In this document: one piece after another, positions 13,747 through 63,318 of the stretch | Numbering within the stretch: the stretch's first letter is position 1 | Layout: each line of letters opens with the position of its first letter | Assembly (NCBI GenBank): GCA_034430755.1 | Contig: DAOUDY010000028.1 | Span: 3,608-67,607, forward strand | Source of the DNA: Dehalococcoidales bacterium | Lineage (GTDB): Bacteria > Chloroflexota > Dehalococcoidia > Dehalococcoidales > RBG-16-60-22 | Direction of reading: 5' to 3' | Length of the DNA stretch: 64,000 nucleotides | Position numbers and translations under genes: made by a program | The notes under the pieces: model-generated | The model's database searches: none | What the model was told of the DNA's origin: nothing | What the model saw: the letters and a program-made list of their open reading frames with translations, nothing else

Positions 13747-13792
13747 GGGATACCTCCTTTTCAGACTTCAGAGCCTGCTTTTAAATCCGATT

Positions 13793-26417: not shown

Positions 26418-26424
26418 TTCAACC

Positions 26425-38684: not shown

Positions 38685-40547
38685 ATGATCTGGTTCCGTA
38701 GGGTTATGGCCATACCCCTGGCGGTCATCTTTGTTATTCTATCGCTGCTGGTGATGCTCGCCTTCCGCGTTAATGCCACGGTTGGCAACCCGGATTTCTA
38801 CGCGGAACAGTTGCAGAAAGCGGACGTATACCACTTCATTTACGATGACGTGCTCCCGGAAGCGCTGGAGGAATCCGGGATGGGTGAGGATGGCGGAGGG
38901 GCCAGCATCATCATAACGCCGCTCCAGCCTTATCTGGTTGACGTGGTCAGGCAAACGCTGCCCCCGGAATGGCTTCAGGCACAGGTTGAGCATGCTATCA
39001 ACGAGGTGGTGCCCTATGTGTGGGGAGAGACGGCCACCTTCAGTATCAATATTCAGTTAAAGGACAGGGTGGAGGCTGGAGCGGGGGCAATAAAGAGCGT
39101 TCTGCACCGAGAAGATGTTTTCCCGGTGCTGTACGGGCAGCTCGTGGCATCGCTTGCCGGTGAGGTAACATCGGCCGAAGACGGGATGCCAGCCATGCTG
39201 GCCGTATCCGGGGAGGAAATGGAAACGATGCTGCGCCAGGTGCTGCCCGAGGACTGGCTGCTCGAGCAGATAGACGGCGCCGTCGATGAAGTGGTGCCCT
39301 ACCTCACCAAAGAGCAGGCGCATTTCGTCCTTGAGATAGATATCACCAGGCCGCTCGATGAACTGGAGGTCGTGCTGGCCGGTTTACTGTCAAGGCAGGA
39401 AGCCTACGATAGCCTGTTTGCCGAAATGCTGGCGCCGGCAATGTCGCAGAATCTGGAAGAGCTGAGCCAGCTCCCCATTGGCGTGGAGCTGACGGAGGAT
39501 GAAATCATCGCCGCTGCCAGAGAAATCATGCCACTGGAGTGGTATCAGGCGCTGGTGCATGACCTGGTCGGTCAGATATTCGCCTACCTGCGTGGGGAAC
39601 AGGATGAACTGGAGTTGACCATATCTCTGGCCGACCGCAAGCCGGAGATAGCCGGGGCGCTCAGCCAGCTGGCTGATGAGAAGATAGGGAGCGCCTTTGA
39701 TTCCCTGCCGGTCTGCACGGAGGCACATCTGCTGGAGCTGCTGTCGGACCCCTCTCTGGAAAATATCCTATGCCGTCCGGTGGATATATCATATCAGGAA
39801 TTCAAGGAACTGGTGGGCCTGGAACCGGGCGACCTGATACAGCCTCTCATTGAAGTGGGCATACCCGATGAGTGGACTTTAACTGAAGCGGAACTGAGCC
39901 AGCTATTCGGTGGTGAAGATGAAGATAATGTTCTGAGCCAGGTTCGGGAGCTGGTGCAGGAAGGCCTGGCCTTCACCGAAGAGGACCTGATAAAAGCTAT
40001 GGACACCGATGCCGTTGCTCTGGAAGATATACGGCAGCAGATAGCTGATGGCCTGACCTTCACCGAGCAGGATTTAAGGGATATGATGGGAGAGGGAGGA
40101 AATTCCGGGGCCGGCGAGCAAATGATAGCCTTTGAGCAGGTGCGTTCCAGCCTTGGAACGGCGAAAAAATGGATAAATTTTATCTGGATTGCGCCATTTT
40201 TGTTGCTGATAGCGGTCGGTGCGCTGGGTGGCCGAAGGTGGAGCAGCAAACTGCTCTGGGCGGCGGCACTGCTGGCGGTTATGGCGATTATCGCCTATAT
40301 CATCTTCGGACCGGTGTTTTCCGCCACTGCGCAGCCGATGATAGACCAGACGCTTGCCACGGGGTTCAATCAGGGTGAAGGCATAACGCTGTCAGTTGCG
40401 GAGAAGGGGATTACCCTGGCGCACAATGCCATTGACAGCTTTATCAGCGGACTTAGAAATCAGGCGATAGCCATCGTAATCGCCTCGGTGGTGCTGGTCG
40501 GTGTGGGAGTGGTACTGCATAACTGGGATAAAATCCGCAGAGATTGA
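38685..40547 (+). CDS. acidic membrane protein with three ~95-aa internal repeats, unknown function
   Basis: 620 aa. N-terminal TM, C-terminal ~4 TM. Repeats: LPPEWLQAQVEHAINEVVPYVWGETATFSINIQL / LPEDWLLEQIDGAVDEVVPYLTKEQAHFVLEIDI / MPLEWYQALVHDLVGQIFAYLRGEQDELELTISL. Confidence 0.6.
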   Translation: MIWFRRVMAIPLAVIFVILSLLVMLAFRVNATVGNPDFYAEQLQKADVYHFIYDDVLPEALEESGMGEDGGGASIIITPLQPYLVDVVRQTLPPEWLQAQVEHAINEVVPYVWGETATFSINIQLKDRVEAGAGAIKSVLHREDVFPVLYGQLVASLAGEVTSAEDGMPAMLAVSGEEMETMLRQVLPEDWLLEQIDGAVDEVVPYLTKEQAHFVLEIDITRPLDELEVVLAGLLSRQEAYDSLFAEMLAPAMSQNLEELSQLPIGVELTEDEIIAAAREIMPLEWYQALVHDLVGQIFAYLRGEQDELELTISLADRKPEIAGALSQLADEKIGSAFDSLPVCTEAHLLELLSDPSLENILCRPVDISYQEFKELVGLEPGDLIQPLIEVGIPDEWTLTEAELSQLFGGEDEDNVLSQVRELVQEGLAFTEEDLIKAMDTDAVALEDIRQQIADGLTFTEQDLRDMMGEGGNSGAGEQMIAFEQVRSSLGTAKKWINFIWIAPFLLLIAVGALGGRRWSSKLLWAAALLAVMAIIAYIIFGPVFSATAQPMIDQTLATGFNQGEGITLSVAEKGITLAHNAIDSFISGLRNQAIAIVIASVVLVGVGVVLHNWDKIRRD

Positions 40548-41500: not shown

Positions 41501-42031
41501 CTAAATCACTTCCAAATAGAACTGGGGTGAACGGGAATACGAGTCAACACTGGCATTGGTGCAGTAAAAGCAACCGCTATCAATGGTCATCCTGTATCTG
41601 GCATAACCCGGCAGCAGGAAGCTCACCTGGCCATTACGCATGGAAATAATGGTTTTGGGGATAAGCTCGCCATTACTGGCTATTGCCCTCTCCCACTCAC
41701 CCTGGCCGTTCTCAACATAGATGCCCACATCCAGAATCAGGTAGCGGTAGCAGCTGAGCAGTTGCTGGGTATTGGTCAGGTACAGTGTTACCTTGATTTC
41801 AGATGGGTTACTGGTGGCATCAATGTAAAAGAGGTCGCCGGGGTTGCTCACGCCTCCGATGGCCATGCCGAAGACGCTATAGCTGGGCATGGCTGAAGCT
41901 TCGGCGAGCTCTATCCTGACCGCGTCCTCGCCAGCCGGGTCACCGGCGCCGACGGCGTAAGCTACTGGCCAGGGGAGGAGAAGGAAGAAGACGACAAAGG
42001 GGAAAATCCGTTTCATCCATTTGTTCTGCAT
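41501..42031 (-). CDS. secreted hypothetical protein
   Basis: Start set at ATG 42031 (AAGGAGGTG 6 nt upstream): MQNKWMKRIFPFVVFFLLLPWPVAYA signal peptide, then 150 aa with no recognised family. Confidence 0.55.
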   Translation of the reverse strand: MQNKWMKRIFPFVVFFLLLPWPVAYAVGAGDPAGEDAVRIELAEASAMPSYSVFGMAIGGVSNPGDLFYIDATSNPSEIKVTLYLTNTQQLLSCYRYLILDVGIYVENGQGEWERAIASNGELIPKTIISMRNGQVSFLLPGYARYRMTIDSGCFYCTNASVDSYSRSPQFYLEVI

Positions 42032-42143
42032 CGCTGGCACCTCCTTGAGCTGTGCTATGGTTTCAGGATAATGCCAGGATGCGAAACAAAGCCTGAAGAT
42101 TTACCCTGTAGTTCTGAAGATTTCCTTAATATTTGAGGGAAAT

Positions 42144-45188: not shown

Positions 45189-47879
45189 ATGAGCATGGAA
45201 AAAATCAAGGCGTTCTTTGAGCCGCGCAGCATCGCTCTCGTGGGAGCTACGGAACGCGAGGGGACCGTGGGGCGTACCGTGCTGGACAACTTGGTTATCG
45301 CCAAGGATAAGCGCAAGGTATTTCCCGTTAATCCCAACCGTGAGAAAATCCTCGACCTCAAGTGTTACCCCAGCCTGAGTGCCATCCCGGAGACGCCGGA
45401 GCTGGTGGTTATTGTGACCCAGGCGAAAACCGTCCCCGGCATAATTGAAGAATGCGGTAAGATGGGGGTCAAGGCGGTGGTCATCATTTCGGCCGGTTTC
45501 AAAGAGATTGGTGAAGAAGGGAAGGAACGCGAAGAGAAAATTATAAATCTGGGTAGAAAATACGGCATGAGGATTATCGGCCCCAACTGTCTTGGGGTGA
45601 TAAAGCCCGGTGCCCAGTTGAATGCCACCTTTGCCACCAAAATGTCCCGGCCGGGACACATTGCTTTCCTCTCGCAGAGCGGTGCCCTGGGCACGGCGGT
45701 GCTTGACTGGGCGGTGAGCCGGGAAATCGGTTTCAGCGCCTTTGTTTCGCTCGGCTCCATGCTTGACGTGGACTTTGGCGACTTAATCGACTATTTTGGT
45801 GAGGACCCTGATACCAGGAGCATAATAATTTATCTTGAATCATTTGGCGATTCCCTGACGCATGCCCGGAAATTCATGAGCGCGGCGAGAGGTTTTGCCC
45901 GCACCAAGCCAATTATCGTTATGAAGCCGGGCAAATTTAAGGAGAGTGCCCGGGCGGCGAAATCGCACACCGGGGCGATGGTCGGCGAGGACTCGTATTA
46001 TGAAGCCGCTTTTGACCGGGCGGGTGTGGTGCGGGTGGAGGAGATTGAAGACCTGTTTAACTGCGCCTCCATCCTGAATACCGCAGTGCTGCCCAAGGAG
46101 CCCAATTTAGCCATCATCACCAATGCCGGCGGCCCGGCGATACTGGCGACGGATGCACTGATGAGCCGGGGTGGTAAACTGGCGGAACTGGGCGAGGAGA
46201 CGGTTAAGGCGCTGGACGGCTTCCTGCCTCCTTACTGGAGCAAGGGCAATCCCATCGATATTCTGGGTGATGCTGACGCGGAGCGTTTCGCACAGACGAT
46301 TGAAACAGTGTTGAAAGATACCGGCGTGAACGGCGCCGTGATTATCTACACGCCGCAGGGCACGGCTACTCCGGGTGAGGTAGCCAGGGCGGTTATCAAG
46401 TGTGCCAAAAAGGCAAACAAACCGATTGTCACCGCCATGATGGGCACGGAAGAGGTCGCCGAGGGCAGGCAGCTTTTCTACGAGAATAATGTGCCGACAT
46501 ACGAATTTCCCGAGGAAGCCATAAAAACCTATCTGTATATGTACCATTATGCCCGCAACCTGGGGTCGCTGTATGAGACACCTGAGGACTTGCCCATGAA
46601 TATGGGTGCCCCCAAGAACTACCTGAAAATCCTTACCCGAAATGCTTTGAAGGCAAAAAAAGCGCTGCTCAGTGAGGAGGACGCCAAGAAGCTGCTCACC
46701 ACCTATGGAATCGCCGCAACCACGCCGCATTTTGCCCCGAATGCTGACAAAGCGGCCATTATTGCCTCGAACATCGGCTATCCGGTGGTGATGAAAATCG
46801 CTTCCCCGGACATTACCCATAAATCAGACGTCGGCGGGGTCAGGCTGAACCTCTCATCGGCGGACGCGGTGAAAAAAGCTTTTGGCGAAATGGTGGCCAA
46901 GGTACGGAAGCAGACGCCCAAGGCCAAAATCGATGGCGTCACCATTCAGGAGATGATGCCTGACTACGACTACGAGTTAATCATCGGCAGCAAGAAAGAC
47001 TCCATACTGGGGCCGGTTATCATGTTCGGACTCGGTGGCACGGAAGCGGAATTTTTCAAGGACATTGCTGTCGGTATCCCTCCCCTCAATCAGGTATTGG
47101 CCCGAAGGGTCCTGGAGCGGACCAAGACCTACCAGATGCTCTCGCAGGGATTCAGGGCAAGGCCGCCGGTCAATCTGCGCCTGCTGGATGAGGCCCTGGT
47201 CAGGGTGGCCAATTTGATAGTCGATTTTCCGGAGATAAAAGAACTTGACATAAATCCGCTGGTGGTCAGCGGTGATTGTGCCGTGGCCCTGGATGCGCGC
47301 ATAGTTCTCGATGACACGGTATTGCGGAAGGAGTCAGAGGAGTACGCTCATTTAATCATTTCACCCTACCCCACGCGGTATATTCAGCCCTGGCGCTGTT
47401 ATGATGGGAGGCAGGTGGTACTGCGGCCGATCCGTCCCGAGGATGAGCCACTGGAGCGTGAGCTTATCTCCGGGCTTTCTTCGGAGTCATCGCGGTTCCG
47501 GTTCTTCTACATCATCAAAGAGATAACCCACGAGATGCTCAGCAGGTTCTGTAACATAGATTACGACCGGGAGATGGCAATCATCGCCGAGTATAACGCG
47601 GACGGTAAGCGGAGAAACGTGGGTGTGGGGCGGCTCATCATTGAGCCGGGTGGGGAGGCGGGGGAATTCGCCATCGTGGTCGCTGACGATTTTCAGGGCA
47701 ACGGCCTTGGTATCAAGCTCCTCGATAGCCTGATTGGCATAGCCCAGGATAAGGGGTTGCAGCGCATCTACGGCATCGTGCTCAATGACAACACGAAGAT
47801 GCTGGGGCTGACCAAGAAGCTTGGTTTCAGCGCCAAGAGGCTCTCCGCCGAAGAAAGTCAGGTAACCCTCGTACTCTGA
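45189..47879 (+). CDS. ADP-forming acyl-CoA synthetase domains fused to C-terminal GNAT (Pat-type protein acetyltransferase architecture)
   Basis: 896 aa. CoA-binding N-terminus (SIALVGATEREGTVG), ligase-CoA and ATP-grasp regions, C-terminal GNAT with FQGNGLGIKLL. Confidence 0.85.
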   Translation: MSMEKIKAFFEPRSIALVGATEREGTVGRTVLDNLVIAKDKRKVFPVNPNREKILDLKCYPSLSAIPETPELVVIVTQAKTVPGIIEECGKMGVKAVVIISAGFKEIGEEGKEREEKIINLGRKYGMRIIGPNCLGVIKPGAQLNATFATKMSRPGHIAFLSQSGALGTAVLDWAVSREIGFSAFVSLGSMLDVDFGDLIDYFGEDPDTRSIIIYLESFGDSLTHARKFMSAARGFARTKPIIVMKPGKFKESARAAKSHTGAMVGEDSYYEAAFDRAGVVRVEEIEDLFNCASILNTAVLPKEPNLAIITNAGGPAILATDALMSRGGKLAELGEETVKALDGFLPPYWSKGNPIDILGDADAERFAQTIETVLKDTGVNGAVIIYTPQGTATPGEVARAVIKCAKKANKPIVTAMMGTEEVAEGRQLFYENNVPTYEFPEEAIKTYLYMYHYARNLGSLYETPEDLPMNMGAPKNYLKILTRNALKAKKALLSEEDAKKLLTTYGIAATTPHFAPNADKAAIIASNIGYPVVMKIASPDITHKSDVGGVRLNLSSADAVKKAFGEMVAKVRKQTPKAKIDGVTIQEMMPDYDYELIIGSKKDSILGPVIMFGLGGTEAEFFKDIAVGIPPLNQVLARRVLERTKTYQMLSQGFRARPPVNLRLLDEALVRVANLIVDFPEIKELDINPLVVSGDCAVALDARIVLDDTVLRKESEEYAHLIISPYPTRYIQPWRCYDGRQVVLRPIRPEDEPLERELISGLSSESSRFRFFYIIKEITHEMLSRFCNIDYDREMAIIAEYNADGKRRNVGVGRLIIEPGGEAGEFAIVVADDFQGNGLGIKLLDSLIGIAQDKGLQRIYGIVLNDNTKMLGLTKKLGFSAKRLSAEESQVTLVL

Positions 47880-47937: not shown

Positions 47938-49281
47938 CTAAAAGCCTCTTATCATCTGCCCAGGGAGCCAGAGGATTATCTGGGGGAAGGTGATGAGCAG
48001 CCCAAGACCAATAAGGATGATGATGATATATGGGATTACGCCGCGTATGATGTGCCCCGTTTGGACACCCAATGATGGGTCAGCCGCACCTCTGAGATAG
48101 AATATGGCGTAGGCAAATGGCGGCGTCAGGAATGAGGTCTGGAGGTTGACGCAGATCATCATGGCGAACCAGAGCTTGTCAAAACCGAGTGCCTCACCTA
48201 CCGGTGTTATTATGGGAACGACAATGAATAATATTCCCAGCCAGTCAATGAAGTAGCCCAGCAGAAAGACGATGAACATGATAATGGCGAAGATGCCCCA
48301 CTTCCCGCCGGGAGCGCCGAGAATCAGTTCTTTAACGATATCTCCGCCACCGGCGCGCATAAATACGCCGACGAAGGCATAAGCGGTGGCGCCGATGAGG
48401 AGCACCATGCCGGTTACTTTTACCGACTCCGTAGCGGTGTCTTTAAGAATTTGGAAGCTAAATTTGCGGTAAACAACGGCCAGAAGTGTGGCCACGAGGG
48501 CACCGACGGCGGCGGCTTCAGTTGGCGCAGCGATGCCGAAGAAGATGCTGCCTAGGACGCCCATAATGAGCACTCCTGGTGGTATGAGTGAGATTATGAG
48601 CTCATATATTTTCTTTCCCCAGGGTACGGCCCTTTCCGCCAAAGGCACGGGGGGTGCAATATGCGGCTGGACAAAGCTGTGTATGGTGATATAAATACAG
48701 TACATAGCGGAAAGCATGAAGCCGGGCATGAAGGCGCCGAAGAACAACTTACCTACGGAAAGTGACGCCATGGGGCCATAGACCACCAGCATGATGCTGG
48801 GCGGAATAAGGATGCCAAGTGTACCCCCGGCACAGACGGCGCCACAGGCCAGAGATTTGCTGTAGCCCCGCTTTATCATCTCGGGAAGGGCGATTATGGC
48901 CAGCGCGGTAACCGAGGCGCCGATGATGCCCACGCAGGCGGCAAGGATGGTGCCGATTAATATGGTGATGACCGCCAGGCCGCCCCGAAAACCGCTTAAC
49001 CATAAATACATGGCGGAAAACATACGTTCCGTTATCCCTGAGTAACCAAGCATGATGCCCATGAAGATAAAGCCGGGCACTGCCAGCAGGATATAGTTGT
49101 TGATTAATTCAAAAAGGCGCTGGTAGATGAGCTGTAGCGAGATATCCACCCCGAAGAGGAGAATGCCCATGACGATGCCGATGCCGCCGACAACCATGGC
49201 CAGCGGGTAACCGACCAGGACCCCGACCAGGATACCACCGAGCATGATAAAGGTAACCAGTTCCGGATCAACATTAATCAT
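47938..49281 (-). CDS. TRAP transporter large permease (DctM family), paralog 2
   Basis: 447 aa. Collinear and highly similar to 3795..5132. Confidence 0.9.
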   Translation of the reverse strand: MINVDPELVTFIMLGGILVGVLVGYPLAMVVGGIGIVMGILLFGVDISLQLIYQRLFELINNYILLAVPGFIFMGIMLGYSGITERMFSAMYLWLSGFRGGLAVITILIGTILAACVGIIGASVTALAIIALPEMIKRGYSKSLACGAVCAGGTLGILIPPSIMLVVYGPMASLSVGKLFFGAFMPGFMLSAMYCIYITIHSFVQPHIAPPVPLAERAVPWGKKIYELIISLIPPGVLIMGVLGSIFFGIAAPTEAAAVGALVATLLAVVYRKFSFQILKDTATESVKVTGMVLLIGATAYAFVGVFMRAGGGDIVKELILGAPGGKWGIFAIIMFIVFLLGYFIDWLGILFIVVPIITPVGEALGFDKLWFAMMICVNLQTSFLTPPFAYAIFYLRGAADPSLGVQTGHIIRGVIPYIIIILIGLGLLITFPQIILWLPGQMIRGF

Positions 49282-49783
49282 GGGCCTTATTCCTCACTAG
49301 CCGATATAAATCACGATAGAATTGGGCAAGAGCCTGCAGGGAAAACAGGCACAGCCCGATAAACACGGCGGTTCGTACCGGGCCGGTTATCGGGTACCAG
49401 AAAGTCATGAGCGACCTCTCGGTGGTTGACCAGGCATACCACATCCACCACCAGCCGGCATAGGTTAGCAAACCGATAAGTGGCAGAAGAAACAATATCG
49501 CACAGACGACGTCAACGATTGCCTGCATTCTCGCGGGCAGGCGTGCGTAGAAAACATCCACCCTGATATGCCGTTTATGGAGGTGGACATATCCCCAGCA
49601 GAGTGAGTACAGTGCCGCCCCGGAGAAGCTGGCGAGCACCGGCCCCTGAATCGTGGGCTTGTTCAATACATAACGCATGAACACCTCGGCGCAGATAATC
49701 AGCATGAGAAAGATCATAAGCCATCTGACGGACCTGCCCGACCATTCATTAGCGTTGTCGATTGCCTTTATTATTTTTCTCAT
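49274..49783 (-). CDS. TRAP transporter small permease (DctQ family), paralog 2
   Basis: 169 aa. HIRVDVFY..LP.R and LVRNKAHD C-terminus. Confidence 0.8.
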   Translation of the reverse strand: MRKIIKAIDNANEWSGRSVRWLMIFLMLIICAEVFMRYVLNKPTIQGPVLASFSGAALYSLCWGYVHLHKRHIRVDVFYARLPARMQAIVDVVCAILFLLPLIGLLTYAGWWWMWYAWSTTERSLMTFWYPITGPVRTAVFIGLCLFSLQALAQFYRDLYRLVRNKAHD

Positions 49784-49885: not shown

Positions 49886-51037
49886 TTAGTCTTTGGGCTT
49901 GGCCCAAGCAGGAAGTCCGTATAAAGAATCCCAGTTCTTGGCAAAGGCACGCTGGGACTCCAGCACTTCCTTGGTTTCGGGATATTTGAGAGCCACCTCA
50001 TCATAGTACGCGGCAGCTTCCTTGGCGAAAGCGTCTTCGATTACGCCGGGCAGCGGGCCCACGATGTTCCCGTAGTCCCTGAATTTATCGAGTGCCGCTG
50101 CGTCACCGGAGGTGAGCATGGTATGGTACCTGATTGCCTCTGACCGGCCGCAGTCCTCGATAATTATCTTGAGGTCATCGGGCAGGGCCTCGAACTTGCT
50201 CCGCTTGACCATCAACTGGTAGACCTCGGTGGGCGCCCGGATAGGACAGAGATAAACATACTTGCCCACCTCGTTCAGGCCCATCTCCCAGTCAAACCGC
50301 GGTGAGCTGCATTCAAAGGCATCGATGACGCCGCGCTTCATTGACTCAAAGATTTCACCCAAAGGCATGAAGACCGAGCCGACACCCATCCTTGCCAGTA
50401 CGGCACCGCCGTCGCCGGAGCATCGCATCTTCAGCCCATCCAGGTCATCGGGGGTTTTCAGCTCCTTGTCAAGGTGGGCGAATATCTCGGGCGGACCGTG
50501 GAAACCGGCTCCCTTGATATCCAGCATATCATACCCCAGGTCCACGTACCACTTGTTAATCAGGTCGGAACCGACGGTATCCATCCAGATTAAATGGGGC
50601 AGAGGCGGTATGCCGCCCACCCTCTGCGAAATCAGGGTGCCAAAGTGGATCTCAGCATTCATGTAGGAACCGCCACCGCCGCAGAAGTCCACAACGCCGG
50701 TATGGACTGCTTTCCACTCCTCGGTTGCCGGGCAGACAGCGCCGGCTGGATTAACTTTCCAAACCATGCGTCCCTGGCTGGCCTCCCCGATTCGGGCAGC
50801 CACTCTCTCCAATCCAACAGTCACTGGCATACCAGCGGGGAGAGATGACTGACCGATCCAGGTAATAACTTCTGCCGGTGCGGCTGGAGCCGGAGCTGGA
50901 GCCGGGGTAGGGGCTGGTGCTGGTGCTGGAGCTGGAGCCGGGGCAGGTGCAGGAGCAGGAGCGGCACAACCGACAGCAACAACGCTGCTGATAAGTGCCA
51001 GCACCATAACCGCGGCGATTATTCTTCCTTTCTTCAT
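49886..51037 (-). CDS. TRAP transporter substrate-binding lipoprotein (DctP family) with Ala-Pro tether
   Basis: 383 aa. Lipobox VAVGC, then A(AP)9-TP-(AP)3-AAPA, then a DctP-like domain only distantly similar to the first binding protein. Confidence 0.85.
   Translation of the reverse strand: MKKGRIIAAVMVLALISSVVAVGCAAPAPAPAPAPAPAPAPAPTPAPAPAPAAPAEVITWIGQSSLPAGMPVTVGLERVAARIGEASQGRMVWKVNPAGAVCPATEEWKAVHTGVVDFCGGGGSYMNAEIHFGTLISQRVGGIPPLPHLIWMDTVGSDLINKWYVDLGYDMLDIKGAGFHGPPEIFAHLDKELKTPDDLDGLKMRCSGDGGAVLARMGVGSVFMPLGEIFESMKRGVIDAFECSSPRFDWEMGLNEVGKYVYLCPIRAPTEVYQLMVKRSKFEALPDDLKIIIEDCGRSEAIRYHTMLTSGDAAALDKFRDYGNIVGPLPGVIEDAFAKEAAAYYDEVALKYPETKEVLESQRAFAKNWDSLYGLPAWAKPKD
50873..50965 (-). repeat. 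coding Ala-Pro repeat, (AP)9 TP (AP)3
   Basis: Codon-by-codon translation of the minus strand: residues 25-55 of the binding protein. Confidence 0.9.
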
Positions 51038-51661: not shown

Positions 51662-52549
51662 ATGGAGGGAACATTGATAGTTACTGATAAACTCGTTATT
51701 TGCGTTGCTCCTTGCGGCAGTTTTCTGGGCAAGGATGCAAATCCTGATATCCCAACCAATCCGAAAGAAATTGCGGAAGAAGTTTACCGTTCCTGGAATG
51801 AGGGCGCTTCTATGGCCCATATCCACGCCCGAAATAAAGAGGGCATAGCCACTACCGACCCGGAAGTCTTCAGCGAAATCGCCCGCCTTATAAGAAGCAA
51901 GAACTGTGATATTATTCTTGAATTCAGCACTTCTCCAGGGCGTGAAGAGGGGGCTAGTGTTGAAGATGGATTCAGAGTCCTTGAGGCAGGCCCGGAACTG
52001 GTATCCTTCAACGTTGGGGTTGCTGTCTTTATGCGTGCGGGAAAAGAACAACTCAGGCCATGGACCCGTTCCTTTGGCGAAAGAATGCTCAAGGAGTTGC
52101 TGGATAGGGGTATAAAACCTGAGTTTGAACTGCATGGCGGCTTGGGTAGTCTGGCCGTGGAAGTCAAATATTTCATTGAAAATTTCCCGCTCCCCAAGCC
52201 TTACTGGATTGACTTTCCCCTGGGAATGCAGAGGACGGCACAGAATGCGACTCCCTATACGCCGAGAACTATGATGCATCTGGTTGACCAGCTTCCTCCG
52301 GATTCGATGTTCATGACTCTTGCCGTCGGTGCTGACGAGACACCGGCGGTAGTTCAATCGATTCTCCTGGGCGGTCACGCACGGGTCGGTTTTGAGGATA
52401 ACATATATTACAGTAGAGGTGTTCTTGCCAGAAGCAACGCCGAGTTCGTCACCAGAATAGCTCGCATAGGTACTGACCTCGGTCGAAAAGTAGCTACACC
52501 AGAAGAAGCACGGGAACTGTTAGGGATACCGGGGCTGAAAAGCAAATAG
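51662..52549 (+). CDS. beta-keto acid cleavage enzyme (BKACE / 3-keto-5-aminohexanoate cleavage enzyme family, DUF849)
   Basis: 295 aa. VICVAPCG, AHIHARN and LGGHARVGFEDN motifs. The real start may be in-frame TTG 51674, which follows GGAGGG (51664-51669). A 100-nt sample I hand-counted in this gene is 43% GC, versus 58% for a sample in the neighbouring TRAP gene. Confidence 0.85.
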   Translation: MEGTLIVTDKLVICVAPCGSFLGKDANPDIPTNPKEIAEEVYRSWNEGASMAHIHARNKEGIATTDPEVFSEIARLIRSKNCDIILEFSTSPGREEGASVEDGFRVLEAGPELVSFNVGVAVFMRAGKEQLRPWTRSFGERMLKELLDRGIKPEFELHGGLGSLAVEVKYFIENFPLPKPYWIDFPLGMQRTAQNATPYTPRTMMHLVDQLPPDSMFMTLAVGADETPAVVQSILLGGHARVGFEDNIYYSRGVLARSNAEFVTRIARIGTDLGRKVATPEEARELLGIPGLKSK

Positions 52550-55083: not shown

Positions 55084-56280
55084 TTATTTCCGCAGCGACT
55101 TTACCGCAGCGCTAATTCCAGCGCCGGTCTCCGTCCGGTAGCCGTCATCGGCGAGCAGCTTTTCCAGCGCGGAGAGGACGAGCAATACATTCTGCTCGGT
55201 GGATGAGTACCCCATAAGCCCGATGCGCCATACCTTTCCCTTCAGCGTTCCCAGGCCGCCCCCTATCTCGAGGTTGTAGTCACTGAGGAGACGCTGCCTT
55301 ATTTGGGCATCGTCGATGCCTTCCGGAATGCGCACCGTGGTCAGGGTGCTGAGGCGATGGCCGGGCGGGGCGTGCAGGGTAAGCCCCATCGCTTCGAGGC
55401 CGGCCTGGAGTGCGGCGCCGTTTTTGGCATGGCGCTGGATGCGTGCTTCCAGACCCTCCTCGGCAATAAGCACCAGCGCTTCGTGCAGGGCGTAGAACAT
55501 GGAGGCCGGTGCAGTGTGGTGATAGGCCCGACCGCCTTCATTTATCCAGTATTTCGAAAGCAAAGAGAGGTCCAGGTAGTAGCTGGATACAGCACGGGAG
55601 CGGTTCTGGAGAGTGTCCATGGCCTTCTGGTTGACGGTGATGGGGGACAGGCCGGGTGGACAGCCAAGGCATTTTTGAGAGCAGCTATAGCAGATGTCAA
55701 TGCCCCAGTCGTCCACGGCCACTTCATGTCCACCCAGGGATGTAACCGCATCCACCAAGAATAACGCCTCATACTGTTTGGCTAATTGAGCAGCTTCGGC
55801 GAGAGGTTGGAGAACACCGGTGGAAGTTTCGGCGTGGACCAGGGCCAGCAGCTTCACCTTTTTGCGGGATTTAAAGGCGGCCTCGATTGCTTCGGGCTCA
55901 ATAATGCTGCCCCATTCGGCTTTCAGACGGACAACTTCTGCACCGCAGCGCGAGGCGATGTTTATCATTCTATCGGCAAAGTACCCGTTATCTGCGATGA
56001 TGGCAACGTCACCCGGTTCCAGGAAGTTACATAAGCCGGCCTCCATCCCAGCAGAACCGGTGGCCGAGATGGGAAAGGTAAGCTTGTTTCCGGTCTGGAA
56101 AACGTAGCGCAGGAGTTTCATGTTACCTTCCATAACGGTGTAAAAATACGGGTCCATGTGCCCGAGCACGGGTGCGATCATAGCCTGCTGGACGCGGGGG
56201 TGAGTATTGCTGGGCCCGGGGCCGAGAAGAATACGTTGTGGGGGCTTGATTTCTTCATATGGAACGCTAGGCATTGCCAA
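55084..56280 (-). CDS. class V aminotransferase (serine/alanine-glyoxylate aminotransferase type)
   Basis: 398 aa. LLGPGPSN, SCSQKCLGCPPGLSPI (PLP-Lys context). Confidence 0.85.
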   Translation of the reverse strand: MAMPSVPYEEIKPPQRILLGPGPSNTHPRVQQAMIAPVLGHMDPYFYTVMEGNMKLLRYVFQTGNKLTFPISATGSAGMEAGLCNFLEPGDVAIIADNGYFADRMINIASRCGAEVVRLKAEWGSIIEPEAIEAAFKSRKKVKLLALVHAETSTGVLQPLAEAAQLAKQYEALFLVDAVTSLGGHEVAVDDWGIDICYSCSQKCLGCPPGLSPITVNQKAMDTLQNRSRAVSSYYLDLSLLSKYWINEGGRAYHHTAPASMFYALHEALVLIAEEGLEARIQRHAKNGAALQAGLEAMGLTLHAPPGHRLSTLTTVRIPEGIDDAQIRQRLLSDYNLEIGGGLGTLKGKVWRIGLMGYSSTEQNVLLVLSALEKLLADDGYRTETGAGISAAVKSLRK

Positions 56281-56310: not shown

Positions 56311-58992
56311 TTATGATTTTAGCAGACTATCGAGCATTTTACCAATGAGGGGCCTGACCTTGTCCTCGGGCAGGCAGTAGTGCATGGTGGTGAAGCTCTG
56401 CCGGAAGCGGGCTACCTCTTTGGAAACATCTTTCTCTTCCAGAATGACCGCCGCCAGGTAGTCGGCGAGCTCGGCGAAGTCGTCTTCCTTCATGCCGAAG
56501 CGGGTCATCTCCTGGACGCCGGTCCTCAGGCCGCTGCTGGCGGTAAAGCCCTCGTCATCGGGCAGCGCCTGAAAGTTGACGATGATGTTGTTTTGCTCAA
56601 GGCGTTCCGCCATCTCCACGCCGCGGGCATAACCCACGCGCAGGACAACCTGGTGCGTCTCCGTGTAGTCGACCGCGGGGTCTCCCTCCACCTGAAGTCC
56701 CCGTTCCTTCAGCGCCCGGGCGAAGGCCCTGGCATTGGACAGCACCTGGCGCTGGTAGGCATCTCCGTAGGCGTTCATTTCGTAGGCGGCCATGAGCAAA
56801 CCGAGCAGGGTGCCCAGGTGGTGGTTGCTGACACTTCCCGGAAAAGCCCGCCGCGCGATGCTCGCCCAGAGTTCGGCGTAATCTGAATCCGGGCTCATAT
56901 TGCTGGCGATGATGCCGCGCTGCGTGCCGAAGAATGTCTTGTGCGTGGAGGCGGTGACGATATCGGCGCCTTCACGCAGCGGCTCCTGGAAGTGGGGGCC
57001 GAACAGGCCGAAGACGTGGGCGGCATCATACATAATAATCGGCTTTGGCCTGATGTCAGCGATTATCCGGGCTATCTCTCTCACCGGCTCCCGGTGCAGA
57101 ATCATGCTCTTGCCGAAGATAAGCAGTTCCGGCCGGTAGCTGGCAATAAGTTCGGCGGTTCTGGCTATGTCTATCTGATACCGGTTTTGGGGAAGAACGG
57201 GGAAATTGACCACCGCCCACCGGTCGGTAACCGGGTCTATGGAGACGAAGTCCCTCAGCGTGCCCATGGTCTGGGCGCTCAGGTGGCCGCCGCGGCCAAT
57301 GTGGTGGTTCATCACGCATCTTATTCTCCTCGGCTCGGCGTGCCTGTCGGCGCGGTTCAGGTAATCCATAATGCCGCTGTACGTGGTGGCATTGGCCATC
57401 TGCCCGCTGAGCAGCCTTGCCTCCACCTCGGAGCAGCCGAGGAACTTTTTCAACTGCTCCTGCACTTCTTCCTCCACCTCGGCAATGAACTTGGTGCCCT
57501 GGTAATAAAAGGCGTCCATATTGCCCAGTGCTTCCACTTTGCGGTGTTCAGCGTACCGGCCGGAAGGGTCGGCGATGGTCAGCAATTTCACCAGCGGTGA
57601 CGCCGTCTGCTCTGAAGGTATCAAATTTATAGTGCGATTTTGCCGCCATATGGTATTGTCGCTGGCCCTTTGCACCAGATTTATGGCCAGTTCTTCCATT
57701 GCTTTTTCACCCTTTGCCGAAGCGTTGTTTTTCATATTGTTGGGCGACAGGGGGTGGGCATAGGGGGGTGCCTCACCGCCGATGTGCCGGCGGACGATTA
57801 CCGCGCTCACCGGCCTGTCCCGGATGATGACCTCTGCTCTCTGTCCTGCTGATACTTCAGCGTCAAGATAGGCCAGGCAGACGTTGCGCCGGGCAGATTC
57901 GCCGCCGGGCACGGACATGGTGCCGGAGCCTTCGAATACCCAGTAGGGCACCACCGTACCGCTGGTAACGTTCCCCACGGTTCTGCCATCAACCAGCACC
58001 TGGCTGCCGGCCCTGGCCACGCCAGCGTCCAGCACGGACATCAGGTAAACTGCTCTGGGAACGAGCAGCTCATCTTTAGGTGTGTTCAGTTTGCCTTCAC
58101 GCCGGAGCTTTACCTCCTGAAACTGCCGGTACAGCGCCTCACGCCCGATGAATTCACCTTTAATGGGGCTGAAGCTGACGGCAAACCGGGCTGCGGAGAG
58201 GGCAAATATGGGTATCTCCTTTCCCCCGGCGTCGGTGCCGAGTTCATGCCCGTAGAGGGGAAAACCGGCTTCCAGCCTCAACGTATCCCGGGCGCCAAGC
58301 CCTACCGGCGCGATGCCGAGATGGCTGCCATTATCAAGCAATTCGCGCCAGAGGGACACGGCGCTCTCGGCGGGTGGGAATAACTCAAAGCCAAGCGGCT
58401 CTCCGGTGTATCCGGTCCTGGCAATCGTGGTGCTGGCCCCCATTATTTCGGTGGTGGTCAGGTGGTTCCAGAGCGGCTCGGGAATCCCGGTTCTGTCGCC
58501 GATGACCGCTTCCAGCACCGCCTTCGTTTTCGGACCCTGCAGGGCGAACATGGCGATGCTGTCGGTGACGTTTTCCAGGGTCAGGCCGGGGTATTTGGCC
58601 GCGTGCGGCTGGAGCCACTGCCAGTCTTGCTCCGTGTTGGTCGCATTAACCACCAGCAGGTAATCATTCTCGCTTACCCGGTAGAGATAGCCATCGTCGA
58701 TAGCGCCGCCGGTCTCGTCAGGCAGCATGGTGTATTGGGCATTCCCGGGCATCAGGGCCGCGGCGTTGCTGGTCAGGACATACTGCAAAAAAGGCAGGGC
58801 ATCCTGGCCGCCGATGCGGAACCGCCCCATATGTGAGATGTCAAAGAGGCCGCCGTATTTTCTGGTGGCCAGATGTTCGGCGAGGATGCCTGTGGCATAG
58901 TGCAGGGGCATTTCCCAGCCGCCAAACGCCACCATTTTGGCACTCAGTTTGAGGTGCTCATCATAAATCGGGGTACGTTTCGCGTTATCCAT
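56311..58992 (-). CDS. fusion protein: aminomethyltransferase (GcvT-like) N-terminal domain + divergent serine hydroxymethyltransferase-like C-terminal domain
   Basis: Single 893-aa ORF. Residues 1-~405: TPIYDEHLKLSAKMVAFGGWEMPLHY...DISHMGRFRIGG...RDTLRLEAGFPLYGHEL (GcvT). Linker ~406-432. Residues ~433-893: NLIPSEQTASP, LSGQMANATTY, YDAAHVFGLFG, ASTHKTFFGTQRG (SHMT motifs, PLP-Lys). Confidence 0.8.
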   Translation of the reverse strand: MDNAKRTPIYDEHLKLSAKMVAFGGWEMPLHYATGILAEHLATRKYGGLFDISHMGRFRIGGQDALPFLQYVLTSNAAALMPGNAQYTMLPDETGGAIDDGYLYRVSENDYLLVVNATNTEQDWQWLQPHAAKYPGLTLENVTDSIAMFALQGPKTKAVLEAVIGDRTGIPEPLWNHLTTTEIMGASTTIARTGYTGEPLGFELFPPAESAVSLWRELLDNGSHLGIAPVGLGARDTLRLEAGFPLYGHELGTDAGGKEIPIFALSAARFAVSFSPIKGEFIGREALYRQFQEVKLRREGKLNTPKDELLVPRAVYLMSVLDAGVARAGSQVLVDGRTVGNVTSGTVVPYWVFEGSGTMSVPGGESARRNVCLAYLDAEVSAGQRAEVIIRDRPVSAVIVRRHIGGEAPPYAHPLSPNNMKNNASAKGEKAMEELAINLVQRASDNTIWRQNRTINLIPSEQTASPLVKLLTIADPSGRYAEHRKVEALGNMDAFYYQGTKFIAEVEEEVQEQLKKFLGCSEVEARLLSGQMANATTYSGIMDYLNRADRHAEPRRIRCVMNHHIGRGGHLSAQTMGTLRDFVSIDPVTDRWAVVNFPVLPQNRYQIDIARTAELIASYRPELLIFGKSMILHREPVREIARIIADIRPKPIIMYDAAHVFGLFGPHFQEPLREGADIVTASTHKTFFGTQRGIIASNMSPDSDYAELWASIARRAFPGSVSNHHLGTLLGLLMAAYEMNAYGDAYQRQVLSNARAFARALKERGLQVEGDPAVDYTETHQVVLRVGYARGVEMAERLEQNNIIVNFQALPDDEGFTASSGLRTGVQEMTRFGMKEDDFAELADYLAAVILEEKDVSKEVARFRQSFTTMHYCLPEDKVRPLIGKMLDSLLKS

Positions 58993-59023: not shown

Positions 59024-59692
59024 TTAATACCGTGAGACGTTTATTTCATACATCTTGCCGGTGACGGTGAAGACGATGCGCTCGCAGATATTGGTCACGC
59101 GGTCGGCGCAGCGCTCCAGGTTGTGGGCTACCCAGAGCAGGCGGGTAGCTCGCGTAATCGTTTTCGGGTCCTCCACCATGTAGCTGACCAGCTCCCGGTA
59201 GACCTGATTATATAGCTGGTCAACTTCATCATCTTCAGTGGCAATTGATTTGGCGGTATTTTCGTCGCAGTTCAGAAATGCGTCCAGACTGCGGTGCAGC
59301 ATGTCCACGGTCTTCTCAGTCATGCGGGGTATATCAATCAATGGCTTCAAGGGTGGCTCATCACCGATCATAACCACGATTTTGGCAATCCCTTCGGCGT
59401 GGTCACCGATGCGTTCCAGCTCCGAGACAATGTTGAGCACGCTGATGAGCGTGCGCAGGTCGCCGGCCATGGGCTGCTGCGTGGCGATAAGTTGAATGCA
59501 GGTTTCCTCGATGTCAAATCGCTTTTTGTTTATCTTCTGGTCATCGGCGATTATCTGGTTGGCCAGTTTCAGGTCGCGGTTTTTCAGCGCTTCGACTGAA
59601 CGGCTGAGCGCCTTTTCCACCATGCTGCCCATGGCGAGCAGCTCGTCCTGTATATCACGCAGCCTTTTTCGAAAGGTAGTTCGTATCTCCAT
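59024..59692 (-). CDS. phoU: phosphate signalling complex protein PhoU
   Basis: 222 aa. Two PhoU repeats (ERIGDHAEGIAK / ERCADRVTNICE). Confidence 0.9.
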   Translation of the reverse strand: MEIRTTFRKRLRDIQDELLAMGSMVEKALSRSVEALKNRDLKLANQIIADDQKINKKRFDIEETCIQLIATQQPMAGDLRTLISVLNIVSELERIGDHAEGIAKIVVMIGDEPPLKPLIDIPRMTEKTVDMLHRSLDAFLNCDENTAKSIATEDDEVDQLYNQVYRELVSYMVEDPKTITRATRLLWVAHNLERCADRVTNICERIVFTVTGKMYEINVSRY

Positions 59693-59715
59693 GGTCGGAA
59701 CCTCCTTAATTCTCC

Positions 59716-60531
59716 TTAACCGAATCTGCCGGTAATGTAATCCTCGGTTCGCTTGTCCTTCGGGTTGGTGAAGAGCTGGGAGGTGGGGCCGTATTCCACC
59801 AGTGTGCCGGCCCGGTCTTCCTCCATCATCAGGAAGGCGGCCATATCTGACACCCGCGCCGCCTGCTGCATATTATGAGTAACTATGACGATAGTGTAGT
59901 CATCGGACAGGCTCCGCATCAGGTCTTCGATTTTAAGGGTAGCGATGGGGTCAAGGGCGCTGCACGGCTCATCCATGAGAATGACCTCAGGCTCAACAGC
60001 CAGAACGCGGGCGATGCAGAGACGCTGCTGCTGGCCTCCCGAGAGGGCCAGTGCCGACTGTCCCAGCTTGTCTTTCACCTCATCCCACAGTGCGGCCTGG
60101 CGGAGGCTGTGCTCCACGATGTCTGCCAGTTCGCTGTGCCTTGTCCGGCCATGTCGCCTGGGGCCGAAGGCAACATTTTCAAAGACTGATATGGGGAACG
60201 GGTTGGGTTTCTGGAAGACCATGCCCACCCTTTTTCTGAGCTCCACCACGTCGATGTCTCTGTCATAGATGTTTATATCGTCAATGGCCACCGCGCCATC
60301 AACGCGTGCCTCGATAATCAGGTCGTTCATGCGGTTGAAAAGGCGCAGAAAAGACGACTTTCCGCAGCCGGACGGGCCTATTATCGCCGTGATTGACTGC
60401 TTTGGAATATCCAGCGATATGGTTCTCAGCGCCTGAAAAGCGCCGTAAAAAAGGTTTACCTTCTCCGTTTTCAGCTTGGTCTCATTTTTGGGAATCGTTC
60501 GCTCGTTCAGCAATGCGTAATTAAGGCTCAT
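59716..60531 (-). CDS. pstB: phosphate ABC transporter ATP-binding protein
   Basis: 271 aa. [28 protein letters not shown]. Confidence 0.95.
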
Positions 60532-61394
60532 GAACCAAACCTCCGCTGTCGGACTCGTATTCTGATGAAAACCGCCAGGGAATTAAAAGACAATACCACA
60601 ACCAGCAGCACCAATGCAATACCCCAGATGGTGGTCTTGGGCATGCCCGGAACATGGGCCGCTGTGGTGTACAGGTGGTAGGGCAGCGCCATGAACTGGT
60701 CGAAGGGGGAGCCGGGCAACCCGGGGAGGATAAAGGCGGCCCCCACCACCAGTATCGGTGCCGTCTCCCCGGCGGCGCGACTCATCGCCAGGATGGCGCC
60801 GGTGATTATGCCGGGCAGGGCCTGAGGCAGAACGACGTGCCGAATCGTCTGCCATTTGGTGGCGCCGGTGGCCAGGCTTCCCTCCCGGTATTCCCTGGGC
60901 ACGGTGATAATAGCTTCTCTTGATGTGGTGATGGTCATGGCCAGCGCCTGACAGGCCAGCGTCAGGCTGGCGGAAAGCAGCGACATGCCGAATTTCATGG
61001 TCATCACAAATAACCCAAGTCCAAAAAGACCGTAAACAATGCTGGGCACGCCGGCGAGGTTGAGAATGGCCATGTTGATGAGGCGGGTCAGCCAGTTATC
61101 GCGGGCATATTCTGTCAGATAGATGCCGGCGAGGACACCCACGGGGAGCGAGAAAATGAGGGCCCCGAGCATAAGGTAAAGGGTGCCCACGATGGCCGGG
61201 AAAATGCCCCCGGCTTTGCCTGCCTGCGAGGGCGGCTGAGTGAGAAAATCCCAGCTTATGGCGCCGGCGCCATTGGCGATGATGTAGGCGATGATGAAAA
61301 CCACCGGGATGACCACGATGGCCACCGCCAGTACCAGCAGGCTGAAGGCGGTGCGCTGGGTTAATTCTCTTTTGCCGATGGCCTGAACTGCCAT
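60528..61394 (-). CDS. pstA: phosphate ABC transporter permease PstA
   Basis: 288 aa from ATG 61394 ([17 protein letters not shown]...). The 532-aa track ORF is an upstream out-of-context extension overlapping pst[29 protein letters not shown]-loop region. Confidence 0.9.
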
Positions 61395-61402
61395 AATATA
61401 GA

Positions 61403-62344
61403 TTACCTCGTGAACTTCCGTTTCTGACGCTCCAGCACCCGGTCGGCTATCAGATTCACTGACAGCGTCATGAGAAAAAGAATCAGACCGATGGCGAATA
61501 ATGCCTGATACTGCAGTCCGCCCCGGACGGCGTTGCCAATCCCGGAGGCAATGGCCGCCGTCATCGGCATCATGGGTTCGGTTGGCGAGTAGGGTACGGC
61601 CAGGGCACCGCCGGCGACCATCAGCACGGTCATGGTCTCGCCGATGGCGCGGCCCACCCCGAGCATGACGGCAGCGGCAATGCCGGAAAGCGCTCCCGGG
61701 ATACAGACATGACGGATTGTCTCCCACCTGGTCGCTCCGAGCGCGTAGGACGCCTCCCTGAACTCTTTCGGCACCGCCCGCAGCGCGTCCTCGGAGACAC
61801 TGACAATGATGGGCAGGCTCATCATCGAAAGCATGATGGCGGCGGTGAGTCCGCTCAAACCGGTATTCAGGTTGAAGGTGCTCTGCACCAGCGGCGATAA
61901 AAGCATGAGGCCGATGAGCCCCATAACCACGGAAGGGATGCCGGCCAGAAGCTCGACGATGGGCTTCACCGTCTCCCTGACGCTGGCCGGGGCTACTTCG
62001 GCGAGGTAGGCGGCGCAGCCCACGCCGATGGGAACGGCAATGGCCGTGGCCACCAGGGTAACCCAGAGGGTGGCCACAAAGAAGGACAGCATGCCGAAGG
62101 TCGGCGGCTCCGAGACCGGATACCATTTGGTGCCGAAGAAGAATTTCAGAGGGGAAGTGTAGGTGAATACGGGTAAGCCTTCACGCATGAGAAGAAAGAG
62201 AACACCTAAAAGGACGATAATGGCCAGCAGGCCGTTGAGTAAGATAAAGCTTTCTATGGTTTTTTCACCGAAACGCCACCGCCGCCTGAGGCTCAGGGCG
62301 AGCCCAGCATCGGCAGTGGCGGATGAAGCTCCCCGCTGCAGCAT
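61403..62344 (-). CDS. pstC: phosphate ABC transporter permease PstC
   Basis: 313 aa. SEDALRAVPKEFREASYALGATRWE loop, 6 TM. Confidence 0.9.
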   Translation of the reverse strand: MLQRGASSATADAGLALSLRRRWRFGEKTIESFILLNGLLAIIVLLGVLFLLMREGLPVFTYTSPLKFFFGTKWYPVSEPPTFGMLSFFVATLWVTLVATAIAVPIGVGCAAYLAEVAPASVRETVKPIVELLAGIPSVVMGLIGLMLLSPLVQSTFNLNTGLSGLTAAIMLSMMSLPIIVSVSEDALRAVPKEFREASYALGATRWETIRHVCIPGALSGIAAAVMLGVGRAIGETMTVLMVAGGALAVPYSPTEPMMPMTAAIASGIGNAVRGGLQYQALFAIGLILFLMTLSVNLIADRVLERQKRKFTR

Positions 62345-62406
62345 GGGGGCACTATTTTCCTTTCCGCTTGTTTTCCCCGGGGGATGGCGGGCTAATTCAT
62401 TATATA

Positions 62407-63318
62407 TTATTGCAGTGGCACATAGCCAACTTCGATTACCTTTGCCTGGCCTTCAGATGAGCGGCAGTAATCAACGAATGCTTTGATAAGGCCGGCGGGC
62501 TCGCCGTTGGTATAGTAGAGGAGCGGGCGGGAAATCGGGTAGGTGCCATCCAGCGCTGTCTCCACGCTGGGCAGGACGGCCGGGTCATCCGCGGTCCTCT
62601 TTATGGCCAGAGGTTTGACCCGCTCGTCTACGTAGCCCAGTCCGGGGTAGAAGATGGCGTTTGGGTTATTGGCGACCTCGGTGATGCCTCCTTCCGTGGA
62701 CGGCAGAAAGAGCACGTCCTGGCCGTACTCGAGCGCTTTGTTCTCGGTGTCCAGCCCCTGCATCTGGACCACGTGCTCCTTGAAGAAGACGTGGGTGCCG
62801 GAGTTGGTATCTCTGGATATAGCCACGATGGGGGCATCATTGCCGCCAATTTCCTTCCAGCTGGTTATCTCGTTGGTGAAGATGGCGGAAAGCTGAGCGA
62901 TGGTCAGCTCGGAAACCGGGTTAGAGGGGTGCACCACGACGGAAAGCGCATCCGTGGCCACCTGAATTTCATAGGGGTTGACACCCTTTTCCTTGGCCTG
63001 GTCGTATTCCCTGGATTTCATCTTGCGGGAAGCCTGGGCAATGTCGGTGGTGCCATCGATGAGGTTGGCAATGCCAACGCCGGAGCCCGGGCCGCTGACA
63101 GCGATGTTCGCCTTGGGGTTCATTTTCATGAACTCCTCTGCCCAGATGGTGGTCAGGGGTGTTACCGTGTTGGAGCCGATAACCTTGAAAGAGCCGGACA
63201 GTTCCGTGCCGGTGGCAGGCGCGGGTGCCGACCGGGCACATCCGGTGATGGCGAGAGTGAGCGCCAGCAATATGGCGGCTGATATAGTGATAAATCGCTT
63301 GTTCAATCTGAATTTCAA
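62407..63318 (-). CDS. pstS: phosphate ABC transporter substrate-binding lipoprotein PstS
   Basis: 303 aa. Lipobox AITGC, GSNTV, SGPGSG, RDTNSGTH. Confidence 0.9.
   Translation of the reverse strand: MKFRLNKRFITISAAILLALTLAITGCARSAPAPATGTELSGSFKVIGSNTVTPLTTIWAEEFMKMNPKANIAVSGPGSGVGIANLIDGTTDIAQASRKMKSREYDQAKEKGVNPYEIQVATDALSVVVHPSNPVSELTIAQLSAIFTNEITSWKEIGGNDAPIVAISRDTNSGTHVFFKEHVVQMQGLDTENKALEYGQDVLFLPSTEGGITEVANNPNAIFYPGLGYVDERVKPLAIKRTADDPAVLPSVETALDGTYPISRPLLYYTNGEPAGLIKAFVDYCRSSEGQAKVIEVGYVPLQ

Follow-up and report, generated by a model that had tools for sequence, protein, structure and literature searches.

A single gene joining a glycine cleavage T-protein to an archaeal-type serine hydroxymethyltransferase in Dehalococcoidales and other bacteria

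The 64,000-nucleotide stretch of Dehalococcoidales bacterium DNA analysed here (hereafter the window) contains an uninterrupted 893-codon open reading frame (ORF) on the minus strand, at 56311 to 58992, in which a glycine-cleavage T-protein (aminomethyltransferase, GcvT) is followed by a serine hydroxymethyltransferase (SHMT). The occurrence of both in one frame raises the question as to whether this is a genuine bifunctional enzyme and, if so, which metabolic system it serves. A first-pass annotation made from the sequence had described a single ORF without an internal stop that fused a GcvT domain to a divergent SHMT domain, and had left the partner substrate open. In the ORF list of the window the frame is continuous over all 893 amino acids (aa), the motifs quoted in that annotation are all found in the protein, and the Pfam models GCV_T, GCV_T_C and SHMT all score above their gathering cut-offs, with borders as given below.

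56311 to 58992, minus strand: the whole fusion ORF, 893 aa plus a stop codon, with full-length relatives in at least 120 protein clusters and in 80 genomes
57748 to 58992, minus strand: T-protein half, residues 1-415, from Pfam, NCBIfam, PDB and Foldseek
58231 to 58965, minus strand: Pfam GCV_T, residues 10-254, 275 bits against a cut-off of 25.6
58693 to 58695, minus strand: codon of Asp100, the catalytic Asp of the T half (second D of IDD), invariant in 79 of 79 fusions
57787 to 57903, minus strand: Pfam GCV_T_C, residues 364-402, 33 bits, over the gathering cut-off
57697 to 57747, minus strand: inter-domain linker, residues 416-432, with a predicted local distance difference test (pLDDT) score below 50 at 420-426 and the site of the break in split genes
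56311 to 57696, minus strand: archaeal-type SHMT half, residues 433-893, from Pfam, NCBIfam, PDB and Foldseek
56458 to 57660, minus strand: Pfam SHMT, residues 445-845, 117.5 bits against a cut-off of 27
56938 to 56940, minus strand: codon of Lys685, the pyridoxal phosphate (PLP) Schiff-base lysine in S-T-H-K, invariant in 79 of 79 fusions

The fusion is genuine and covalent, and places two consecutive enzymes of glycine/serine one-carbon metabolism in one chain. Within a collection of 5.8 billion proteins drawn from independent assemblies at least 120 clusters carry it, and the best 120 are all of about 890 aa, show 58-99% identity and have both GCV_T and SHMT, with GCV_T_C flagged in most. 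Those clusters that bear a name are called 'glycine cleavage system aminomethyltransferase GcvT' and come from Dehalococcoidia, Dehalococcoidales or Chloroflexota. Among contigs representing one genome per species, at least 580 stretches encode a relative; the best 80 of these were assessed for colinearity and are colinear across residues ~1-890, through both halves. The Dehalococcoidales relatives among the best 80 are 68-83% identical, and at 51-59% identity the same set includes members from Thermodesulfobacteriota/Desulfobacterales/Syntrophobacter, Spirochaetota, Pirellulales (Planctomycetota), Acidobacteriota, Woeseiaceae, Actinomycetota, Anaerolineales, Clostridia and Ca. Abyssobacteria as well as the cultured Sporomusa malonica DSM 5090. 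An exhaustive HMMER scan of 50%-identity representatives gave about a dozen full-length fusion clusters, reaching down to ~38% identity. Among metagenome-derived genomes the architecture is common across many phyla.

Residues 1-415 are predicted to be a bona fide GcvT. The N-terminal half passes the NCBIfam GcvT models NF001567 (score 317.3, cut-off 300) and TIGR00528 (score 279.7, cut-off 235.85), whereas models of tetrahydrofolate (THF)-dependent demethylases fall far under theirs (DmdA, 52.8 against 410; trimethylamine N-oxide (TMAO) demethylase, 139 against 1100). The nearest solved T-proteins in a PDB sequence search are those of Bacillus subtilis (1yx2, 236 bits) and Thermotoga maritima (216 bits), and Foldseek aligns the T half with 1yx2 and 1woo at a template modelling (TM) score of 0.88-0.89. 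When aligned with reference enzymes, the catalytic Asp (D100) and the Y87, N116, E203, R235, R239 and E241 equivalents are invariant in all 79 fusions including that of the window, and Y85, D97/D98, N114, E196, R224, R228 and E230 of Escherichia coli GcvT are all matched and likewise invariant (the E. coli reference sequence behind this numbering aligns cleanly). We take Asp100 to be equivalent to D97 of the E. coli enzyme in mature numbering, as in the ET-D97N structure, and to D96 of the T. maritima enzyme.

To look at gene context, ORFs were called in 85 loci and clustered, and recurring families were confirmed with Pfam. The recurring neighbours of the fusion are GcvP subunits, GcvH, LipA, LipB, a dihydrolipoyl-dehydrogenase-type flavoprotein (lpd) and an Lrp/AsnC regulator. 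Within a flank of ~10 kb gcvH and/or gcvP are found in 28 of 77 loci; if only the 39 loci that extend 8 kb or more to either side are counted, the number is 20. A gcv gene directly adjoins the fusion in 14 loci and lies on the same strand in 22, the usual orders being fusion-gcvH-gcvPA-gcvPB(-lipB) and gcvH-gcvPA-gcvPB-fusion. Such gcv-linked loci occur in Desulfobacterota, Spirochaetota, Pirellulales, Ca. Abyssobacteria and Clostridia, and a separate gcvT or glyA is present in none of the fusion loci. As a side observation, a conserved protein of ~190 aa that matches no Pfam family and carries a lipoprotein-like signal sequence (cluster c11; L004, L015, L019-L021, L023, L025 at 4846-5409, and L026) lies directly downstream of the fusion, beside the ATP synthase operon, in the Thermodesulfobacteriota/Syntrophaceae clade.

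Unfused forms were found by searching with a stand-alone representative resembling the C-terminal half and with its relatives. At loci L088 and L089 (a Chloroflexota metagenome-assembled genome, MAG, GCA_043800335.1) a gcvT of 412-419 aa is followed after 3-19 nucleotides (nt) by an SHMT gene of 464-470 aa and of the archaeal-type subtype, which has its own AAGGAG ribosome-binding site, and then by gcvH, gcvPA and gcvPB, with an aminotransferase, lpd and lipB present in addition at L088. The split pairs are colinear with the window protein, the T gene corresponding to residues 1-415/416 at 61% identity and the SHMT gene running from residue 420-438 to 890 at 67-72%, and the break between the two genes falls exactly at the low-confidence linker of the fusion. 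Because the pairs align colinearly and break at the linker, a Rosetta-stone relationship, the comparison indicates that the fusion derived from the adjacent gcvT and shmt genes of a variant operon of the order gcvT-shmt-gcvH-gcvPA-gcvPB. A further unfused pair, with the two genes 1 nt apart (L090, 4551-7455; L091, 3763-6667), was seen in a MAG labelled Candidatus Nanoarchaeia; here no gcvH or gcvP occurs within 6 kb, and the T gene encodes a longer protein of 482 aa with 42% identity to the window T half, the same protein being present on 11 contigs.

The partner substrate, which the first-pass annotation had treated as open, thus appears largely settled by gene context: since the fusion occupies the gcvT slot of clusters with gcvH, gcvP, lipA, lipB and lpd, and the unfused pairs sit in gcv operons, the partner system would be the glycine cleavage/synthase system and not a demethylase substrate.

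The C-terminal half is an SHMT as the same annotation had proposed, but 'divergent' describes it incompletely, as its PDB and Foldseek matches assign it to the archaeal Methanocaldococcus jannaschii type, and it is predicted to be intact. Its closest solved match is the M. jannaschii SHMT (4bhd/4uqv) at 186 bits and ~30% identity, followed by the L-threonine transaldolase 7k34 at 101 bits and by bacterial and eukaryotic SHMTs at no more than 87 bits. Foldseek TM scores are 0.86-0.90 to the M. jannaschii enzyme (the best being 0.90, to 4uqv) and 0.82-0.88 to bacterial SHMTs. The PLP lysine K685 (equivalent to K229 of E. coli GlyA) is invariant in 79 of 79 fusions, as are the equivalents of GlyA D200, H203, H126, H228, S175, Y55, E57, Y65, P258 and R363, with D656, H570 and R823 of the window protein among them, and at the folate site the equivalents of E57, Y64/Y65, G125 and L127 are retained in the family. 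Residues in which the family differs from GlyA include N37, replaced by Q, M, T or S, and R235, replaced by Q, the latter change being common to the archaeal enzyme. Both halves look catalytically intact, and because the catalytic and cofactor residues of each are invariant in all 79 fusions, both would be under purifying selection as active enzymes.

We consider it likely, on this evidence, that the ORF encodes a bifunctional enzyme in which a linker of ~17 residues connects the T-protein of the glycine cleavage system with a dedicated SHMT of the archaeal type, born of adjacent genes of a gcv operon. Several observations weigh against this reading. As had already been noted for gcvH and gcvP, none of gcvH, gcvP, lpd, lipA, lipB or a second gcvT or glyA is detected by tblastn in the 64-kb window, and no gcvH, gcvP or lpd lies nearby in any of nine Dehalococcoidales loci either, so the H, P and L proteins would be encoded elsewhere in the genome. 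On the SHMT side the C-terminal half scores 240.4 on the bacterial GlyA model NF000586 of NCBIfam, under its cut-off of 335; the folate-contacting N347 of GlyA is Gln (Q808) in 79 of 79 fusions, with the preceding K346 changed to Tyr or Phe; and a loop is inserted between the E57 and Y64 equivalents at residues ~483-496 (~57505-57546), which is of low confidence in the monomer model.

The missing gcv neighbours bear on an alternative in which the GcvT-like half of the Dehalococcoidales proteins works independently of H-protein, as a THF-dependent demethylase or by aminomethyl transfer from some other donor, while the SHMT half captures the methylene-THF as serine. The GcvT fold also occurs in DmdA, dimethylglycine oxidase and TMAO demethylase, and such GcvT-fold demethylases do appear among the weak matches. 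In Sporomusa malonica DSM 5090 (L079, NZ_CP155572.1; 4747-8268 and 12977-14295) the fusion likewise has no adjoining gcv genes, and is preceded by an MttB-family methyltransferase (possibly of the non-pyrrolysine type) and a hydantoinase/oxoprolinase-like protein and followed by a B12-binding radical-SAM protein, a context that hints at a link to the metabolism of methylated amines such as betaine. We nevertheless regard this alternative as improbable: the N-terminal half passes both the equivalog and the subfamily cut-offs for GcvT where the demethylase models remain far below theirs, the same residues are invariant in Dehalococcoidales and in gcv-linked members, and a Chloroflexota relative at 61-67% identity has the pair within a gcvH-gcvPA-gcvPB operon.

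The score under the GlyA cut-off and the invariant Gln at N347 could also be read to mean that the C-terminal half has the SHMT fold but acts as an aldolase or transaldolase independent of folate, or that it works with another pterin, a reading that would also fit the archaeal identity of the nearest solved relative and the rank of the L-threonine transaldolase as the second. However the residues for folate chemistry and carboxylate binding (the equivalents of E57, Y64/Y65, H126, L127 and R363) are invariant, bacterial gcv operons have the domain either in one chain with a THF-dependent T-protein or encoded beside one, and the match to SHMT exceeds that to the transaldolase by 186 bits to 101. 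A score under the GlyA cut-off is, we infer, the pattern expected when an archaeal-type SHMT is run against a bacterial model. This alternative too is unlikely. The last one, that faulty sequencing or assembly turned two adjacent genes into one long ORF, could appeal to the unfused adjacent pairs seen in some genomes but has next to no likelihood and an assembly artefact is excluded, as hundreds of assemblies, made independently and covering many phyla, show the same continuous frame (among them the 80 species-representative genomes and a cultured strain with a complete genome), the linker can be aligned across relatives, and the stop codon and separate ribosome-binding site of the unfused forms are both absent from the window.

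An AlphaFold2 model of the 893 residues, built on a 24-sequence alignment, has a pLDDT of 90.1 and a predicted TM score (pTM) of 0.87. The only stretches of low confidence are residues 420-426 in the linker, with pLDDT below 50, and residues 485-496 and 719-723. Since the pTM is 0.87 and only 7 linker residues are disordered, the model suggests a defined and compact arrangement of the T and SHMT domains relative to each other. No PDB chain spanning both halves was found with Foldseek, where the query-normalised TM score never exceeded 0.44.

If the bifunctional reading is correct, the T half would take the aminomethyl group from lipoyl-H-protein, transfer its carbon to THF and release NH3, the H-protein being loaded by P-protein and re-oxidised by L-protein. 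The SHMT half would then combine the resulting 5,10-methylene-THF with a second glycine to give serine, with regeneration of THF. The net reaction would be 2 Gly + NAD+ -> Ser + CO2 + NH3 + NADH and would be reversible, as in the reductive glycine pathway. All known SHMTs dimerise, and the SHMT half is expected to do so, giving a (T-SHMT)2 particle in which the fusion would guarantee a 1:1 stoichiometry and keep the two folate sites close together. From the model it is plausible that methylene-THF is channelled directly between the T and SHMT sites, and the loop insertion together with the changes at N347 and K346 may be an adaptation to folate hand-over from the T half. Such a hand-over would be relevant only to the direction from two glycines to serine; where serine is broken down, or where the reductive glycine pathway runs, the two halves would act in parallel on the folate pool with glycine as the shared intermediate, and co-localisation and 1:1 stoichiometry would be gained even without it.

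A more far-reaching version of this scheme is offered tentatively, as possible rather than likely. The fusion might form the core of a 'glycine-to-serine synthase' in which (T-SHMT)2 docks lipoyl-H-protein and a single folate shuttles unreleased between the two sites, so that anaerobes could run glycine cleavage or the reductive glycine pathway with minimal free folate. The arrangement might then have evolved twice, in opposite domain orders (the second being the SHMT-first family described below), with the archaeal-type SHMT as a dedicated and hitherto unrecognised subunit of a variant gcv operon.

The gene that follows the fusion in the window was proposed by the first-pass annotation to be a class V aminotransferase, and both Pfam and the PDB agree.

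55084 to 56280, minus strand: AGXT-family class V aminotransferase (alanine/serine:glyoxylate type), Pfam Aminotran_5, with 402 bits to PDB 1vjo, an alanine-glyoxylate aminotransferase

Its ORF has a probable ATG at 56274 behind a AGAGGTGA ribosome-binding site of its own, begins ~30 nt past the fusion stop codon, and is probably co-transcribed with the fusion. An AGXT-type aminotransferase lies immediately downstream in 7 of 9 Dehalococcoidales loci and in the window (L001, L002, L006-L010 and L013). As a family-wide trait the linkage was rejected; the two genes are neighbours in the close Dehalococcoidales clade and not across the family. In that clade the adjacent enzyme may feed glycine from glyoxylate and/or turn serine into hydroxypyruvate, and that the clade runs glyoxylate -> glycine -> serine (-> hydroxypyruvate) is a speculative extension of this.

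Upstream of the fusion a pstS-pstC-pstA-pstB-phoU phosphate-uptake cluster (59024-63318, minus strand) ends 31 nt before the fusion start, an arrangement also present in a 79%-identical relative and gone at ~60% identity, and the linkage is probably incidental. No convincing terminator was found between phoU and the fusion, although it would be odd for the fusion to share a transcript with phosphate-uptake genes. A promoter and terminator scan around the fusion gene gave nothing over shuffled background, and no glycine or THF riboswitch, nor any other Rfam match, was detected anywhere in the window.

Further genes of the window were recorded for context. An 896-aa ORF on the plus strand (45189-47879) was considered as a paralogue of the fusion and rejected, being similar in length only; its product has CoA-binding, succinyl-CoA-ligase-like, ATP-grasp and GNAT domains and looks like either an ADP-forming acyl-CoA synthetase or a protein acetyltransferase of the Pat kind. 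On the minus strand, a few kb away from the fusion, are the genes of a tripartite ATP-independent periplasmic (TRAP) transporter (DctM, 47938-49281; DctQ, 49274-49783; DctP-like, 49886-51037), with a BKACE-family beta-keto acid cleavage enzyme beside them (51662-52549, plus strand). A D-2-hydroxyacid dehydrogenase (34211-35251, plus strand) could be a hydroxypyruvate/glyoxylate reductase. The minus strand also carries a methylmalonyl-CoA mutase (large subunit, 23371-25047; B12-binding subunit, 22899-23336) adjoined by a three-subunit 2-oxoacid:ferredoxin oxidoreductase (25064-27483). Five long ORFs had no Pfam match at thresholds of E <= 1e-3 or E <= 1e-4, namely 31591-34119 (minus strand, 842 aa), 38685-40547 (plus strand, 620 aa), 12683-14482 (plus strand, 599 aa), 41501-42040 (minus strand, 179 aa) and 18396-19142 (minus strand, 248 aa).

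The first-pass annotation knew of no characterisation of the architecture, and no description of the fusion was found by PDB sequence search or in the full-text literature, coverage of which excludes most subscription journals, so that a prior mention is possible. The architecture is common and not rare. The component enzymes are classical, and both multifunctional folate enzymes and the non-covalent coupling of the glycine decarboxylase complex (GDC) with SHMT are familiar. The novelty lies in the covalent joining of T-protein to SHMT and in the recognition that a variant of the bacterial gcv operon regularly includes an archaeal-type SHMT. Glycine cleavage/synthase and SHMT together form the core of two routes. 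One is the reductive glycine pathway, which synthetic biology has taken up as a major target and which, for the assimilation of formate/CO2, is the most ATP-efficient aerobic-compatible route known; the other is the proposed glycine-mediated syntrophic acetate oxidation. With carriers among hundreds of species of anaerobes and at least one strain that can be cultured (S. malonica DSM 5090), the fusion offers a ready-made test case for folate channelling, which if true would raise its importance, and it is a candidate part for pathway engineering. Because fusion genes are labelled 'GcvT' alone the SHMT activity of their genomes is under-called, and this affects metabolic reconstructions of Dehalococcoidia, Desulfobacterota and others.

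A second, independent fusion family has the reverse order: its proteins, of ~1070-1280 aa, begin with a canonical SHMT (386 bits to Pfam) and continue with two GCV_T stretches (P0191, P0271-P0389; L085-L087). It shares with the window fusion the two Pfam families and the automatic annotation as 'GcvT', and differs in its domain order, in its canonical SHMT, in the two GCV_T stretches and in its taxa, being widespread in Anaerolineae/Chloroflexota, Aerophobetes, Poribacteria and Planctomycetes. The two loci inspected showed no gcv genes nearby, and the family is apparently undescribed.

Among known systems the T half has the fold of stand-alone GcvT (1yx2, 1woo and E. coli 3a8i; TM 0.84-0.89, ~33-38% identity), the same catalytic Asp and folate-binding residues and, in many relatives, the same slot beside gcvH/gcvP. 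Unlike GcvT, it carries a C-terminal SHMT of ~460 aa, it is ~415 aa in length as against ~360 aa, with small insertions in the C-terminal barrel region, and in the window its gene does not adjoin gcvH or gcvP. With the M. jannaschii SHMT (4bhd/4uqv) the SHMT half shares the S-T-H-K motif, a Gln in place of E. coli R235 and the overall length. The archaeal enzyme, however, is stand-alone and prefers tetrahydromethanopterin, whereas the fusion family lives in bacteria with THF-type T-proteins and is set apart by its substitutions at N37 (Q/M/T/S), N347 (Q) and K346 (Y/F) and by the loop insertion at ~483-496. Bacterial GlyA (E. coli 1dfo) has the fold and the PLP- and substrate-binding residues in common with the SHMT half, at ~27% identity and ~75 bits, and the SHMT half falls under the GlyA cut-off.

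Covalent joining of consecutive one-carbon or folate steps is a principle that the fusion shares with dimethylglycine oxidase (1pj5), sarcosine oxidase (1vrq/2gag), dihydrofolate reductase-thymidylate synthase (DHFR-TS) and FolD, and for some of these enzymes intramolecular channelling has been demonstrated. Their partner domains differ from those described here, and we know of no example in which a T-protein is joined to SHMT. Functional parallels are the GDC-SHMT coupling of plant mitochondria in photorespiration and the reductive glycine pathway as it runs in Desulfovibrio and in engineered strains, which use the same two reactions, the same methylene-THF/THF pool and glycine, and the same net interconversion, 2 Gly <-> Ser + CO2 + NH3; there the reactions are divided between separate polypeptides, where here they are brought together in one chain.

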